The notes under the pieces were generated by a model. That model saw nothing but the letters and a program-made list of their open reading frames with translations, had not been told where the DNA came from and did no database searches. The translations under genes and the position numbers were made by a program. A DNA stretch of 64,000 nt, from contig CAWKCK010000017.1 in NCBI GenBank assembly GCA_963848135.1, positions 372,001-436,000 on the forward strand, given 5' to 3'. The first letter of the stretch is position 1. Each line of letters opens with the position of its first letter. Shown piece by piece: positions 2,662 through 11,405 of this stretch. Source of the stretch: an uncultured delta proteobacterium. GTDB taxonomy: Bacteria; Desulfobacterota; Desulfobacteria; Desulfobacterales; SG8-13.

Positions 2662-5600
2662 TTAGATTTCATCGACAACTTCAACCCCCACATCATGATA
2701 TGTGGCGACACCGGTCCCAGCGGGGATTAGGCGCCCCATAATGACGTTCTCCTTCAAACCCTTCAAGAAATCTACCGCGCCGGAAATGGATGCGTCGGTA
2801 AGCACCTTGGTGGTTTCCTGAAAGGAAGCCGCGGAGATGAAGCTGTCGGTACTGAGCGATGCTTTGGTAATGCCAAGGATGAGCGGTTCGGCAACCGCCG
2901 GTTTTCCGCCTTGCATGATAACAGCCCGGTTCTCCTCGTCAAATCGTACCCGGTCCACCTGTTCTTCCGTGATAAATTCCGTATCGCCGACCTCAACGAC
3001 TTTGACCCGTCGCATCATTTGGCGCACAATGACCTCGATATGTTTGTCGTTAATACGTACTCCCTGCAGGCGGTAAACCTCCTGGACTTCGTCCACCAGG
3101 TACCGCGCGAGGTCGACCTCGCCTTTTATATTGAGAATATCCTGGGGTACGGCCGAACCGCCGATCAGCGGTTCACCAGCGCGCACGTAATCGCCTTCGA
3201 TGACGTTGATGTGTTTTCCCCTGGGAATTAGGTAGTCTTTCGTCTCACCAACACCGTCAACAGGGCTGATGGTAACCTTCTGTTTGCCTTTCTTTGTGCC
3301 CTTGGCGATCGAAACATAACCGTCTATTGCACTCAGAATAGCCACTTCCTTCGGTTTCCTTACTTCAAACAGCTCGGCCACCCGCGGCAAACCACCTGTG
3401 ATATCCTTAGTTTTGGTGGTTGCTCGCGGCAACTTGGCCACAATGTCACCGGCCTTTACGGCGTCGCCTTCTTCAACCAGCATAATGGCATCAATCGGCA
3501 GCATGTAACGGGCCATGGCGTTCGACGCCGGCAGTTTAACTGTTTTTCCGTCCTCACCCTTAATAGAGATCCGCGGCCGTTCCTCGGTCGTCTTAGATTC
3601 GATAACTGTTTGGCTTGACTTACCCGTCACGGGATCGACCTTTTCCTGCATGGTCTTTCCGCGGATGATGTCGCCAAACTTCACGTTACCGTTGACTTCA
3701 GTAAGGATTGGTGTTGTGAAAGGATCCCAGGTCGCCAGAAGATCGCCCGCTTTCACCAGCCCGCCATCCTGGACGAGAATGTGAGCGCCGTAAATAACCG
3801 GAAAGCTTTCCAGTTCACGGCCCTTCTCGTTGACGATCGTAAACTTACCCCCCCGGCGATTCATGACCACTTCCTGCCCATCGGAATTTTTGGCAATACG
3901 CAGATCGACGAATTTTATCTTGCCATCGACCCGGGAACGGATATCAGCCTGTTCAACGCGCCGACTGGCTGTACCGCCGATGTGAAAGGTCCGCATCGTC
4001 AGCTGGGTTCCGGGTTCACCGATTGACTGCGCAGCCAGGATACCGACAGCCTGGCCATGTTCCACAGTCTGACCGTGGGCCAGATCGCGTCCGTAACAGT
4101 GAGCACATACGCCGGTCTTCGTCCTGCAGGTCAAAACGGAGCGGATTTTGATGTTTGTCAGGCCGGCATCTTCAATCCGTTGAACGGTGGGTTCATCGAT
4201 TAGGTGATTGGCCGGTACAATGACCTCCTCGGTGAAAGGATCAATGACATCTTCTGCAGTCACCCGCCCCAACACACGTTCCCCGATACGCTGAATCACT
4301 TCACCACCTTCCATCAACGGCCCGACCTCAACGCCCATGCGGGTTCCGCAGTCATCCTCCATGACAATGCAGTCCTGTGCGACGTCTGCGAGACGACGGG
4401 TGAGATAACCCGAGTTGGCTGTTTTCAGCGCCGTATCTGCCAAACCTTTGCGGGCACCGTGGGTCGAAATAAAATACTGCAACACGGACAGCCCTTCCCT
4501 GAAGTTGGAGGTAATCGGCGTCTCGATGATCTCTCCTGAAGGTTTGGCCATCAGACCCCGCATGCCGGCAAGCTGACGCATCTGGTCTTTGCTGCCCCGG
4601 GCACCGGAATCGGCCATCATGAATATAGGATTAAAGCTTTCGGAAATGATGGGATCCCCGTTCTTGTCCATAATCGGGTTGCCCGCAGAATCGTTCACCG
4701 GCGCCATCCGCATAGCCTCCATCATTGCGTTGGCCACATCATCAGTGGCTTTGGCCCAGATATCAACGACTTTGTTGTATTTTTCGCCCTGGGTAATCAG
4801 GCCCTCGGTATACTGCCGGCCGATTTCCTCCACCTGCTTCTCGGCCTCATTCAAAAGCTTCCACTTTGAATCGGGTGTGATCATGGCATCGATTGAAATC
4901 GACAAGCCACCTTCCGTCGAATAGCGATAACCGGTATTTTTGAGACGGTCGGACAGAATGACCGTCGCTTTTGGACCGAGATTGCGGTAAACATAATCCA
5001 CAAGATTCCGCAGCGTTTTCTTATCCATCACACGGTTGATCACGTCAAAGGGTATCGGCGGTTGTCTCTTCAAAACTTTAAAAATGTGATGCTTCCCATC
5101 AGCCGTGAGAACATTGCTAACGTCACCGATATTCAGGTAGTAAACCTTGTCAGCGGTATCTTCGTCGATATTGAACGTGTTGACAAACTCATCCTTCCTC
5201 ACGAGGCCGATATTGCCGTCGTTAACCTTGTCGGGACTCTGGGAGTGGGTCGAGACCATTTCAGTGAAGTCCGCCCCCTCTTTGATCTTGCGATGGATGC
5301 TTCTTGCTTCCTGCAAGTCTTTCACCATGATGTGGCAGAGGTCAAAGATATCCTCCTCCGGAATGATTTCCCACAACAGAATTCGCCCGACGGTGGTGTC
5401 GACGCGTTTGCCGTCCATGCGCACGGAAATCTCGGCATGTAATTCGACATTGCCGTCGTCGTAGGCAACTCTGACCTCTTCGGCATTGGCAAAATACATA
5501 CCGTCACCCTTGCGTCCCGGTATGCCCCTGGTCATGTAGTAAAGCCCCAATACGATGTCCTGACTGGGCACGATGATCGGCGACCCATTGGCTGGCGACA

Positions 5601-7140: not shown

Positions 7141-10100
7141 TCAACTCTTTCCTTCGATAAGGTCGATATCGAGTCCCAAAGCCTGGAGTTCTTTGGTCAT
7201 CACTCTGAAGGACTCTGGAATACCTGGTTCCAGAACATTCTGGCCTTTAACGATCTTTTCGTACATTCGCGTTCTGCCGGCCATGTCATCCGATTTGACG
7301 GTCAGAAACTCCTGCAGCGCAAAGGCCGCTCCATAAGCTTCCATCGCCCAGACTTCCATCTCGCCGAGCCGCTGACCGCCGAACTGTGCCTTGCCACCGA
7401 GCGGTTGTTGCGTCACCAGTGAGTATGGGCCAATGGACCGGGCATGAATCTTGTCATCCACCAAATGGTGCAGTTTCAAGACGTACATGGTGCCGACGGT
7501 AATTCTTTCCTTAAATGCCTCCCCGGTACGACCATCGTAGAGGGTTGTCTGCCCGGTCGTGCTTACCTCTGCTTCTTGCAGCAGGTTTTTGATTTCATCC
7601 TCTTTGGCGCCGTCAAATACCGGCGTCGCCATATGCACGCCGTCTTTGTACTGAATGGCAAAGGTCATCAACTCATCGTCACTGAAATCTTTAATCGATG
7701 CCTGAGCCTCGACGTCTTCGAAGATTTTTTTCAGTTTGCCTCTCAACGCTTTGAATTTTTGTTCTTCAATTAACACACTCAATTGATCACCGAGAGTTTT
7801 GGCGGCCCGCCCAAGGTGAATTTCGAGAATCTGACCGACGTTCATCCGCGAAGGGACGCCCAAGGGGTTCAGAACCATGTCGACCGGCTTGCCATCCTTG
7901 AAATAGGGAAGATCTTCAATGGGTAGAATCCTGGAGACAACACCTTTATTTCCGTGGCGCCCGGCCATTTTGTCGCCAACAGAAAGCTTGCGTTTCATGG
8001 CAACGTAGACCTTGACGAGTTTGATGACACCGGGTGGCAAATCGTCCCCTTTTTCGTAACGGGTGACTTGCTGCTCGAACACCATCCGCGTCAGTTCGCT
8101 CTGATCCCGGTAACGTTCCAGCAGTTCGTGAACCTTTTCAGTCGTTTTCGGGTCTTCCAGGACGATGCCTTCCACTACAGCCAATGGAATTTGCTCGAAG
8201 GTGTCAGTATCAATTTTGGCACCCTTGGCCACCAGGGATTTCTTCCCTTTTTTCAGGGCCGCTTGCACTTGTTGCCCCACCAGTAGCTGTTTGAGTTCAC
8301 CGCGCACGACATCTTCGATGACACCCAATTCATCATCCCGATCCTTTTCGAAACTGGCAATCTCTTCATCTTCGATCAAACGGGCGCGATCGTCCTTCTG
8401 GACTCCGCGACGCGAAAACACCTTGGCATCGATAACTGTGCCCTGGATCCCCGGAGGAACCCGCAAAGACGTATCTTTTACATCGCCGGCTTTTTCTCCG
8501 AAGATGGCCCGCAACAGCTTTTCCTCCGGTGAAAGTTGCGTTTCACCTTTCGGAGTGATCTTGCCGACCAGGATATCACCCGGCACAACCTCGGCTCCCA
8601 ATCGAATGATTCCGCTGTCATCTAAATTCTTCAGCGCTTCCTCTCCAACGTTGGGAATGTCGCGGGTGATGTCCTCCTTGCCAAGCTTGGTGTCTCTGGC
8701 AACGACCTCGAACTCTTCGATATGAACGGAGGTGTAGACCCCGTCCCTGACCAGCCTTTCGCTGACCAGGATGGAATCCTCGAAATTGTATCCGCCCCAG
8801 GGCATGAAAGCCACGGTGACGTTCTTACCCAATGCCAACTCACCCTTTTCCGTTGCCGGACCGTCGGCGATGATTTCCCCCGCCTTAACTTTTTGCCCGT
8901 TACGGACAATGGGGCGGTGGTTGAAACAGGTGTTCTGGTTACTACGAATGAATTTCGACAGGTTGTAGATCGTGACGTCTTTTGCCATTGGATTTTCCGA
9001 CGGATCGTGTTTGAGAACGATCCGAGAGGCATCCACGTCAACAACGGTAGCATCGCGCTGGGCAACTATGGTCACTCCGCTGTCTTTGGCGACGACCCCC
9101 TCGATTCCGGTTCCGACAAGAGGCGCCTCATTAACCAACAGGGGTACAGCCTGGCGTTGCATGTTTGAGCCCATTAGCGCCCGGTTGGCATCGTCGTTTT
9201 CCAAAAACGGAATCAAAGATGCCGAAACGCTCACCAGCTGATTGGGGGAGATGTCCATCAGTTCAATCTCTTCGCGCGGCACCATCATAAACTCCCCAGC
9301 CACGCGAGAGGTTACCATAGGATTTATATAGCGGTCTTTTTCGTCAACCTGTGCATTGGCTTGCGCAATGGGGTGTTCTTTTTCTTCGAATGCGTCCAGA
9401 AACTTTACCTCTTTTGTAACCTTGGCATCCTTGACGACCCTGTAAGGTGTTTCTATGAATCCGAAATTATTCACCCGGGCATAGGTGCTCAACGACACGA
9501 TCAAACCGATGTTGGGCCCCTCGGGCGTTTCGATAGGACAGATACGACCGTAATGGGACGGATGAACGTCACGCACTTCGAAACCGGCGCGCTCACGTGT
9601 CAACCCGCCCGGCCCCAGGGCGCTGAGCCTTCGTTTATGTGTCGTTTCCGAAAGTGGATTGGTCTGGTCCATAAATTGAGACAGCTGGCTGGTGCCAAAA
9701 AATTCTTTTACCACCGCCGAAACCGGCTTTGGATTGATCAAATCGTGGGGCATCAGTGCATCAACTTCCTGCAGACTCATGCGTTCCTTGATGGCTCGCT
9801 CCATGCGGACCAGGCCGATCCGATATTGGTTTTCGAGCAATTCGCCCACTGCGCGGACCCTGCGATTTCCGAGGTGGTCGATGTCATCGACAACCCCCTG
9901 GGTGTCCCTGAGCTCAATCAGGGCCCTGGTCGTCAGCAGAATATCTTCTTTGCGCAGAATGCGGAGGTTCATCATGGTTTTGATGTCGAGTCTCTGGTTG
10001 ATTTTCAGTCGACCGACACCCGAAAGATCGTAATAGTTGGGTTTGAAAAACAGGTTGTCGATGAAATCCTGGGCCACTTCAGGCGTGGCAGGGTTGCCCG

Positions 10101-11238
10101 GCCTGAGTCGCCGGTAGATTTCGATCAGGGCTTCCTCTTTGCTTTCAACCTTGTCGACCAGAAGGGTTTTGCGAATCGAGTCGCTGCTGGAGCTGCCATC
10201 GACATAGAGCACGTCGAATTCATTGATTCCAGCTTTGCTGAGCTTGGCCAGGTTTTCTTCATCTGCCGTATCGTTGGCCTTTACAACCGGCAAATCGGAA
10301 TCAGGATAGTAAATGGTGTTGGCGAAAACCCTGCCGCTTAACTCGTCCGGTCCAATGGGTATCAAACCGGCATCGGCTGTTTTCAACCGTTTGACCGCAC
10401 GGGCGGTAAATATCCGTCCCTTTTTAATCAACACATTCCCGGTCTCCGGATCTTTTATGTCCCGGCTGGCGCGTTGACCCTTCAAAAATTCGGGGTTGAA
10501 CCGTTTTGAAATCCGTTTGCCCTCAATGACGATTCTCTCGCATTTATAGAAATAGGTCAGCAGGTCTTCGACACTGTAACCGAAAGCTTTAAAAAGAATC
10601 GTGATCGGAAATTTCCGCCGCCTGTCAATCCGGATATAAACGATATCTTTGGGATCGATTTCCATATCGATCCAGGAGCCTCTAACGGGAATAATTCTGG
10701 AGCTGTAAATAATTTTACCGCTCGAGTGGGACTTGCCTTTGTCGTGATCGAAGAACACACCCGAAGAACGATGCAACTGGCTGACCACGACCCGTTCCGT
10801 CCCATTGATGATGAACGTCCCCTTTTCGGTCATCATCGGTATGGTACCAAAATAAATCTCCTGCTCTTTTATATCGCGAATGTTTGAAATACCGGTATCC
10901 GCGTCAGTATCATACACCACAAGGCGAACGGTGATGCGCAACGGTATCTCGTATGTCATTCCCCGGTGTATGCACTCTTCCACGCTGTGCTTTACCTCCG
11001 CAAAGCGGTACGACACAAACTCCAGGGAAGCACTTCCGGTGAAATCTTTGATGGGAAATACAGATCGGAATACCGCCTGCAGACCGATATCCTCCCGCTT
11101 TTCCGGAGGAACATCCATTTGCAGCAACCTTCTGTATGACTCTCTCTGCACTGCGATAAGATCTGGAATGTCGACAATCTTGCGGATTTTACCAAAGTTT
11201 TTTCTTATCCGTTTGCTTGCCAGGGATCTTTCCGACAT
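7141..11238 (-). CDS. rpoB: RNA polymerase beta subunit
   Basis: [34 protein letters not shown]; likely start [16 protein letters not shown] at 11238. Confidence 0.99.
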
Positions 11239-11405
11239 TTTTGCTCCAGTATTTTTGGGGTTACATAACTCAAGGGGTCCTTGCCGACATTTCGGGCTGA
11301 ACCACCTGGGAGAGTGTCTGTCAATTTGCAACCGGCGGAATGATGGTACGGTTCTTCATTCCGCCGGAGATTCGCTTCCCTCCACGGCAACGCATGACAA
11401 GGAGA

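Follow-up and report, generated by a model that had tools for sequence, protein, structure and literature searches.

Why does the β′ subunit of a bacterial RNA polymerase (RNAP) carry, between two conserved blocks, 98 residues that resemble a prolyl isomerase? The question is raised by rpoC of an uncultured member of the Desulfobacterales, read here in a window of 64,000 nucleotides (the whole stretch of DNA that was analyzed, from contig CAWKCK010000017.1). An earlier note had described the segment as a PpiC-type parvulin domain built into β′. Translation of the minus strand from position 5059 to position 5352 gave exactly the 98 residues listed in that note. Coordinates of all features are collected in Table 1.

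Identity and integrity of the insert

With the insert alone as the query, the Pfam profiles Rotamase (PF00639; 34.3 bits; E value, 4.9e-8; curated cutoff, 21.7) and Rotamase_3 (PF13616; 34.0 bits; curated cutoff, 22.5) both matched above their thresholds. Scores were 28.2 and 27.4 bits, respectively, with the whole of RpoC as the query, and a genome scan with PF00639 gave 32.9 bits. Using phmmer against PDB sequences, we found matches to PrsA (5.4e-5) and to E. coli Par10/PpiC (1jns; 6.2e-5), and the alignment to Par10 was nearly end to end (residues 6 to 94 of the insert query to residues 7 to 89 of Par10). Automatic annotation in public databases already recognizes the domain: most of the closest proteins carry a precomputed PF00639 match, and "peptidylprolyl isomerase" is the name given to one partial record.

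A Foldseek search with the model of a 297-residue fragment returned only β′ chains (query template-modeling score [TMq], 0.42 to 0.44; root mean square deviation, ~15 Å) and was uninformative about the insert. Hence, we folded the insert alone. From a 24-sequence alignment, AlphaFold2 (AF2) gave a model with a predicted local distance difference test score of 94.2 and a predicted template-modeling score (pTM) of 0.85. The model consists of a strand (residues 5 to 13), three helices (16 to 27, 32 to 39, and 43 to 47), a strand (50 to 54), a helix followed by an additional one (56 to 63 and 67 to 74), and two strands (85 to 87 and 90 to 100). This is the parvulin order, β-α3-β-α-β2, with one extra helix. 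Foldseek matched the insert model to 79 PDB entries at an E value of ≤0.001, and all those among the matches listed were parvulin domains or proteins containing them. Structural matches with a TMq of 0.66 to 0.83 included YacD, PrsA, both the P1 and P2 domains of SurA, PpiD, Par14, Pin1, Par10, and archaeal Pins. No HABAS/SBHM or BEAN/BBM2 fold was found for the insert; HABAS-type signals lay at RpoC residues ~1097 to 1307, outside it. Profile scores above the Pfam cutoffs and the fold predicted by AF2 and recognized by Foldseek thus agree with the earlier assignment, and we concluded that the insert is a predicted PpiC-type parvulin domain built into β′.

Solved β′ chains align with the query up to E. 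coli residue 585 (query residues 1 to 99). Chains of the Xanthomonas/Pseudomonas type restart at residue 587 or 588 with nothing between, and the window's protein thus has ~98 residues that are extra relative to solved RNAPs, the number that had been claimed. Comparison with two relatives that lack the insert (G026 and G039) placed its boundaries within 1 to 2 residues of those first proposed. The insert splits the Pfam domain RNA_pol_Rpb1_3 ("pore 1"), such that RpoC residues 490 to 575 match profile positions 1 to 82 of 162. Each of the linkers to the core has at most 5 residues, P572 of the N-terminal junction is present in all 114 close homologs, and the reading frame is unbroken across 1470 amino acids (aa).

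The junctions are also found in contigs from sequencing runs. Three DNA runs from three studies (X1, X2, and X3, of which X1 may be the source sample) all yielded contigs that bridge the N-terminal junction without a gap, as did the RNA-library run X20. The C-terminal junction is bridged by contigs of X1 (record 1) and X2 (record 6), and an 807-nucleotide contig of X1 spans positions 4900 to 5497 gap-free. No joints or skipped parts were reported in the junction-bridging contigs. Run X20 contained only 0.04 of the sampled words. Its contig (record 11) differs at 10 of 189 positions and hence stems from a relative; it may reflect carried-over DNA and is no proof of transcription. Weightier than the bridging of junctions by contigs is the presence of the same in-frame insert in dozens of independent assemblies. 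No intein or mobile-element family of Pfam matched RpoC. That the insert is an artifact (a chimeric assembly, read-through after a frameshift, or an intein-like element that is later removed) is hardly credible, since we found no point in its favor, and the unbroken frame, the many assemblies, the three DNA runs, and the Pfam result all stand against it.

One relative of the same order, G020 (L030, C12:26400-27800), has an rpoC whose frame changes from 1 to 2 to 3 inside the insert and is normal thereafter. The two changes are most likely assembly indels in this 20-contig genome; they may also mark a decaying insert.

Table 1. Features of the insert, its surroundings in RpoC, and the rpoBC genes in the window
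Feature	Positions	Strand	Basis or equivalence
Parvulin-fold insertion, RpoC aa 575-672 (98 aa, in frame)	5059..5352	minus	Pfam, PDB phmmer, AF2, Foldseek
N-terminal junction IIPEE, aa 570-574	5353..5367	minus	equals end of E. coli β′ ~581-585
C-terminal junction PIPFDVIN, aa 673-680	5035..5058	minus	core restarts, E. coli β′ ~586-593
H581, first His of dual-His motif, strand β1	5332..5334	minus	Par10 alignment
H663, second His of dual-His motif, strand β4	5086..5088	minus	aligned to Par10 H84
S613, position of catalytic Cys (Pin1, Par10) or Asp (Par14, PrsA)	5236..5238	minus	Par10 alignment
A658-D659-G660	5095..5103	minus	A658, Thr of parvulin H-bond tetrad; G660, E. coli PpiC F81
Proline-pocket residues I622, F630, F634, with adjacent acidic E629	5173..5211	minus	Par10 alignment
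K685-K686, E. coli β′ K598/K599	5017..5022	minus	equivalence by offset from mapped junction
rpoC, RNAP β′ subunit, 1470 aa	2662..7074	minus	open reading frame and translation
rpoB, β subunit, directly upstream of rpoC	7141..11331	minus	Pfam RNA_pol_Rpb2 domains

Placement, distribution, and descent

The insertion point corresponds to E. coli β′ 585/586, within the pore 1 domain. The insert ends 12 residues before K685/K686, and K685 is present in 114 of 114 homologs. According to the accessible part of PMC7676912, the E. coli equivalents K598/K599 lie in the secondary channel, 6 to 10 Å from the tip of the DksA coiled coil in RNAP-DksA structures, and form the start of a helix that leads to K615, at ppGpp site 1 and ω. 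In the accessible parts of PMC6970531 and PMC7749167, we found no residue-level information on the region around E. coli β′ residue 585. The N and C termini of the insert lie on adjacent strands in the AF2 model, as suits insertion into a loop, and the parvulin fold should thus tolerate such an insertion.

The genome that carries the window has 10 over-cutoff matches to the DksA/TraR zinc-finger family PF01258 (contigs C3, C10, C12, C13, C14, C17, and C18), at least 6 of them in open frames of 124 to 150 aa. GreA is present once. Insert-bearing relatives G024 and G028 have three and two PF01258 matches, insert-less G026 and G039 have one and two (one of the two in G039 being below the cutoff), and an outgroup has one. 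We considered a link between the insert and the number of DksA/TraR-type factors and rejected it, as no relation was seen across the window's own genome, four relatives of the order, and one outgroup. We read the 10 matches as putative secondary-channel factors that have expanded in this genome specifically, irrespective of whether the insert is present.

We searched 41 relatives for the insert and obtained an RpoC match in 36 and none in 5. The insert is present in 33 of the 36, spread over roughly 20 families, and is contiguous in 31; the others are G004, where it is split by contig ends, and G020. In G026 and G039 the flanks abut without an insert, and one relative (G008) is ambiguous. Across 201 genomes of the phylum, insert-spanning matches among those listed came only from the window's own genome and from all five other genomes of the same order; the listed matches from other orders covered the flanks only, and any match across the insert would be among the highest ranking. 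In a scan with each species represented by one genome, we confirmed 49 loci, all in metagenome-assembled genomes (MAGs) or single-amplified genomes. All 49 titles name Desulfobacterales, Desulfobacteraceae, Desulfonema, Deltaproteobacteria, Thermodesulfobacteriota, Proteobacteria, or Pseudomonadota; the scan used two patterns from a 10-sequence alignment and favors close relatives, and its 49 loci set no bound on the distribution. The closest proteins likewise come from MAGs of Desulfobacterales, Desulfobacteraceae, Deltaproteobacteria, and Thermodesulfobacteriota.

A search of representative proteins with the insert gave 286 matches at an E value of ≤1e-3. None of the 150 best listed was longer than 1100 aa, and the best single-stretch matches that we inspected (P0125, P0126, P0128, P0129, P0130, P0138, and P0141) were RpoC fragments. 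Full-length RpoC proteins were probably clustered, at 50% identity, under representatives that lack the insert; for this reason, the search is silent on other phyla. In the ESM Atlas, the best look-alike scored 0.83, below the guide value of 0.9. It is a cluster made up of RNAP fragments, 68% of which have PF00639; the cluster is commonest in Thermodesulfobacteriota and gave no lead to other phyla. We concluded that the insert is confined, in the samples examined, to the window's own order, the Desulfobacterales. Lineage-specific RNAP insertions in the sense of Lane and Darst are in-frame extra segments between conserved blocks that are restricted to a clade and missing from most bacteria. The insert is in frame, lies between conserved blocks, is restricted to a clade, and has no counterpart in any of the aligned solved β′ chains.

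To place gain and loss, we built a maximum-likelihood tree of full-length RpoC (FastTree, LG plus gamma; 32 taxa; 1355 columns, with the insert columns removed) and rooted it on eight genomes of other orders. The order formed a clade with a support of 1.0. Insert-less G026 was sister to all other members (0.969), and insert-less G039 was nested, as sister to G028 plus G032 (1.0). The inserts of G028 (L099) and G032 (L097) are the most decayed, with both His residues gone and extra loops of 8 and 11 residues, respectively, and G039 (L104) keeps only a short linker (…IIPKDEV-GPPVQF…). In these three genomes, decay and deletion of the domain can be followed as a natural series. Read most simply, the tree implies that the insert was gained once, after the earliest split within the order, and was later deleted once, in a subclade whose domain was already degenerating. 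A domain with a peptidyl-prolyl isomerase (PPIase) fold would then have been recruited once and kept while an ecologically important order of sulfate reducers diversified, and the intact, decaying, and deleted versions offer a natural experiment on the gain and loss of insertions in an essential enzyme. The donor clade of the domain cannot be named, because even the closest free-standing parvulins share only ~30% identity with it. The insert as a replacement of a free PpiC was also considered and rejected: insert-bearing G036 and G022 have short-frame parvulins as well (120 and 111 aa), insert-less G026 and G039 showed no short-frame parvulin with that query, and the pattern is not complementary.

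Nei-Gojobori dN/dS (the ratio of nonsynonymous to synonymous substitution rates) among genus-level relatives was 0.04 to 0.27 for the insert and 0.02 to 0.14 for the flanks (pairs with computable dS). Mean column entropy over the 114 close homologs was 1.70 bits in the insert versus 0.68 bits in the flanks; constraint is thus ~2.5 times weaker in the insert. We concluded that the insert is under purifying selection, looser than that on the core. Both surveys had been suggested in the earlier note; they gave a single order and a dN/dS below 0.3.

Active site and possible function

Alignment to Par10 showed that the dual-histidine motif is present in the window (H581 and H663), that Ser stands at the catalytic Cys/Asp position (S613), and that F630 stands at Par10 M57, all as first described. 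The motif is not universal in the clade. Parvulin catalysis is defined by a Cys or Asp two residues after a conserved Ser, with a Thr or Ser completing the hydrogen-bond tetrad; in the window, S613 and A658 occupy the Cys/Asp and Thr positions, and this part of the tetrad is missing. The hydrophobic proline pocket is retained: F634 aligns to a Par10 Phe, and we take I622, F630, and F634 to be the equivalents of Pin1 L122, M130, and F134. Among the 114 homologs, position 613 is Ser in 65, Gly in 33, Ala in 7, Thr in 6, and Asp in 2 (113 shown) and never Cys, and in 22 family-level lineages it is Ser or Gly, Ala, Thr, or Leu, again without Cys. Position 658, canonically Thr, is Ala in 72 homologs, Ser in 12, Val in 9, Ile in 6, and Thr in 5. 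Position 660 is Glu in 38, Gly in 34, and Asp in 17. At the equivalent position of E. coli PpiC, the F81A change abolishes PPIase activity, according to the accessible part of PMC7353009.

The best-kept residues of the insert in the 114 homologs are H663, F603, G620, and G623 (114 each), F630 (113), S611 (112), H581, E629, and F665 (110 each), and F634 (108). Of the 22 lineages, 17 have H581, 15 have H663, and 14 have both; F665 occurs in all 22, F634 in 21, and F630 in 20. In 24 insert-bearing fragments, F665 (numbered F191 in the fragment and F94 in the 102-residue piece) is the sole invariant insert residue. Since the His residues are lost in many lineages and F665, F634, and F630 are kept, what is conserved across the order is the fold with its hydrophobic groove and no catalytic apparatus.

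Three other proteins of the genome match PF00639. All have N-terminal signal or anchor segments, which leaves the insert as the sole cytoplasmic parvulin domain found with this profile. One periplasmic protein of the genome, a SurA-like protein of 345 aa (L082, G000:C18:137500-139500), has a degenerate parvulin domain in which, with motifs read by eye, the first His is Asn and the second is Gln, as in divergent RpoC inserts.

We favor, with roughly even confidence, the reading that the insert serves mainly as a module on the polymerase surface for docking or for proline/peptide recognition, weakly catalytic or noncatalytic. A complete parvulin-fold domain entered a probable surface loop of pore 1 in β′ once, early in the Desulfobacterales, and was then passed on vertically under purifying selection. 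Its parvulin core is preserved, and most lineages also preserve the hydrophobic proline pocket and both His residues; the Cys/Asp and Thr of the tetrad and an equivalent of PpiC F81 are missing. Fixed near the mouth of the secondary channel, the domain could present a proline/peptide-recognition or docking surface that recruits or positions a protein partner or that buttresses the helix linking the channel to the ω/ppGpp site 1 region. Efficient prolyl isomerization would not be its role. We favor binding over catalysis because of the changes at S613, A658, and G660, the effect of F81A, and the retention of both His residues in only 14 of 22 lineages, and because the insert is less constrained than its flanks and inactive parvulin domains that bind peptides exist. 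If the reading holds, a potential proline-binding groove lies next to the entry route of Gre/DksA-type regulators. A domain that binds or isomerizes a transcription factor would give a testable handle on what bacterial cytoplasmic parvulins do, and even a domain with only a docking or structural role would be a clean phylogenetic marker for the Desulfobacterales.

Several points weigh against the docking module. The location of the domain on the outer surface of pore 1, near the secondary-channel mouth, is one that we infer from the distance to K598/K599, and the model of the 297-residue fragment had a pTM of only 0.58. In the closest homologs, the two His residues are near-invariant (110 and 114 of 114) and the proline pocket is kept, so activity is possible in the window's own clade. 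The missing Cys/Asp is a weak argument, because Gly also stands there in two high-scoring, canonical parvulins that the same genome encodes for the periplasm (motifs read by eye). The dual His is reported to be structural, not catalytic, in Pin1. Finally, the nested loss in G039 makes the domain dispensable in at least one lineage.

We consider it rather unlikely that the insert is, as one of the functions put forward in the earlier note would have it, an active, RNAP-tethered prolyl isomerase that catalyzes cis/trans isomerization at Xaa-Pro bonds; its targets could be NusG, Rho, Gre/DksA-type factors, sigma, flanking β′ prolines in cis, or nascent proteins. In favor of activity are the retention of both His residues and of I622, F630, and F634 in the 114 closest homologs, an insert sequence that exceeds the curated Pfam thresholds, and a dN/dS far below 1. 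No other cytoplasmic PF00639 domain was found in the genome. Free E. coli PpiC pulls down NusG, Rho, SuhB, and RpoA, as stated in the accessible part of PMC7353009, and a "Rosetta-stone" link between parvulins and transcription is thus plausible. However, none of the 22 lineages has Cys at position 613, Ala replaces the Thr, and Gly, Glu, or Asp stands where PpiC has F81; nor does the insert have a phosphate loop of the Pin1 type or a WW domain. One or both His residues are missing in 8 of the 22 lineages, and the whole domain is gone in one nested lineage. Catalysis hence cannot be a function conserved across the order.

It seems doubtful that the domain is a largely neutral passenger, a fragment of a parvulin gene that landed in a permissive surface loop, without a specific ligand or regulatory role, and that persists because clean removal is rare and misfolding is costly. 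Its much faster evolution relative to the flanks (1.70 versus 0.68 bits) would be expected of a passenger, as would the single invariant residue (F665) in the 24 fragments, the deletion in G039, the heavy decay with extra loops in G028 and G032, and termini on adjacent strands in a fold that tolerates loop insertion. Against this, the domain has been kept in 33 of 36 relatives from roughly 20 families, with a dN/dS of 0.04 to 0.27. Furthermore, its best-kept residues (H581, I622, E629, F630, F634, and H663) cluster in the substrate groove and not in the hydrophobic core alone.

We give equally little credence to a built-in, proline-directed switch. Here the domain would be a working, perhaps slow, isomerase or proline reader that acts on secondary-channel factors or factors of the NusG/Rho type, or in cis on the invariant flanking prolines P572 and P675, and so resets the helix equivalent to K598-K615. 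If true, this would parallel in bacteria, and in covalently built-in form, the control of RNA polymerase II (Pol II) by Pin1/Ess1. It would also confirm, in the "Rosetta-stone" manner, that the transcription machinery is a target of free parvulins, E. coli PpiC among them.

Gene neighborhood and comparison with known systems

All five Pfam RNA_pol_Rpb1 domains (1 to 5) matched RpoC, with E values of 1.7e-81 to 2.4e-20, and a search of the window's own genome with the RpoC flanks matched only this rpoC gene. Its neighborhood has the canonical order rplJ-rplL-rpoB-rpoC-rpsL-rpsG (Pfam L10, L7/L12, S12, and S7 for the neighbors). The EF-Tu gene (220 to 1413) directly follows rpsG (1508 to 1978) on the minus strand with no fusA (EF-G) between them; in the classical str operon, by contrast, fusA lies between rpsG and the EF-Tu gene. 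Subthreshold Pfam matches at RpoC residues ~1097 to 1307 (Peptidase_M23, Biotin_lipoyl, Apocytochr_F_C, RPOC_hybrid, and RnfC_N) suggest that the window's β′ has the usual HABAS-type/sandwich-barrel-hybrid insertions besides the parvulin domain. One relative, G025 (L094, C66:8006-13496), has a stop-free frame of 1632 aa antisense to rpoC, which probably reflects base composition and is unlikely to be a gene.

Of the known parvulins, E. coli PpiC/Par10 (1jns) is like the insert in fold and size (89 of 98 residues aligned; Foldseek TMq, 0.66; 28% identity) and shares with it both His residues, a proline-pocket Phe, and a short β1-α1 loop. PpiC is a free-standing enzyme of 93 aa, whereas the insert lies covalently within β′. 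The insert also differs in having Ser for Cys, Phe for Met57, Ala for Thr, and Gly for F81, and in an extra helix segment of ~6 residues after α4.

Pin1 and Ess1 associate a parvulin domain with a multisubunit RNA polymerase, as the insert does, and their structures match its model (TMq, 0.73 to 0.78). They act in trans on phospho-Ser-Pro repeats of the Pol II C-terminal domain (CTD), through a WW domain and a basic phosphate-binding loop. In contrast, the insert has a β1-α1 loop of 2 residues (between strand 5 to 13 and helix 16 to 27) and no WW match in Pfam, and alignments with Pin1 need 115 to 120 columns for the 102-residue insert query. Bacterial β′ has no CTD repeat. The likeness to Pin1 that the earlier note had drawn did not hold at the level of type, since the phosphate-binding loop and the WW domain are lacking, and the resemblance to Pin1/Ess1 is a functional analogy only.

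The P1 domain of SurA and the parvulin domain of PpiD share the fold of the insert (TMq, 0.70 to 0.83 for SurA chains and 0.72 for PpiD 2kgj). They are catalytically inactive, with degenerate sites, and serve as peptide-binding or chaperone modules. Several lineages of the RpoC insert have His changed to Asn, Gln, or Tyr, and such changes are also seen in the SurA-like L082 of the same genome. The SurA and PpiD domains are periplasmic or membrane anchored and belong to dedicated chaperones, whereas the insert is cytoplasmic and lies inside an essential enzyme.

With the known RNAP insertions (β SI1/SI2, β′ SI3, Thermus β′ NCD, and those of the BEAN and HABAS types), the insert shares an in-frame, clade-restricted, surface location between universal blocks and vertical inheritance. 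Such insertions can bind regulators; TraR, for example, contacts the β lobe-SI1 (PMC6970531, accessible part). In the accessible text of a 2024 survey (PMC11515920), lineage-specific β′ insertions mostly belong to HABAS, with rarer BEAN and sLC variants, and occur at seven locations; compared with Table 2 of that survey, the insert differs in its PPIase fold and in its position, at the bD4/uD3 boundary. The words parvulin, rotamase, PPIase, prolyl, and isomerase do not occur in the accessible main text of PMC11515920, nor "Desulfo" or parvulin in its supplementary file. Our literature search, whose reach did not extend to the Lane and Darst catalogues of 2010 or to Iyer et al. (2004), found no description of the fusion. 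These results agree with the impression in the earlier note that the fusion is undescribed; it may have been catalogued elsewhere. We concluded that the insert is a lineage-specific RNAP insertion with an apparently unprecedented type of fold. Lineage-specific insertions are a route by which bacterial RNAPs gain clade-specific regulation, and a PPIase fold among those of β′ widens the repertoire of domains built into RNAP.

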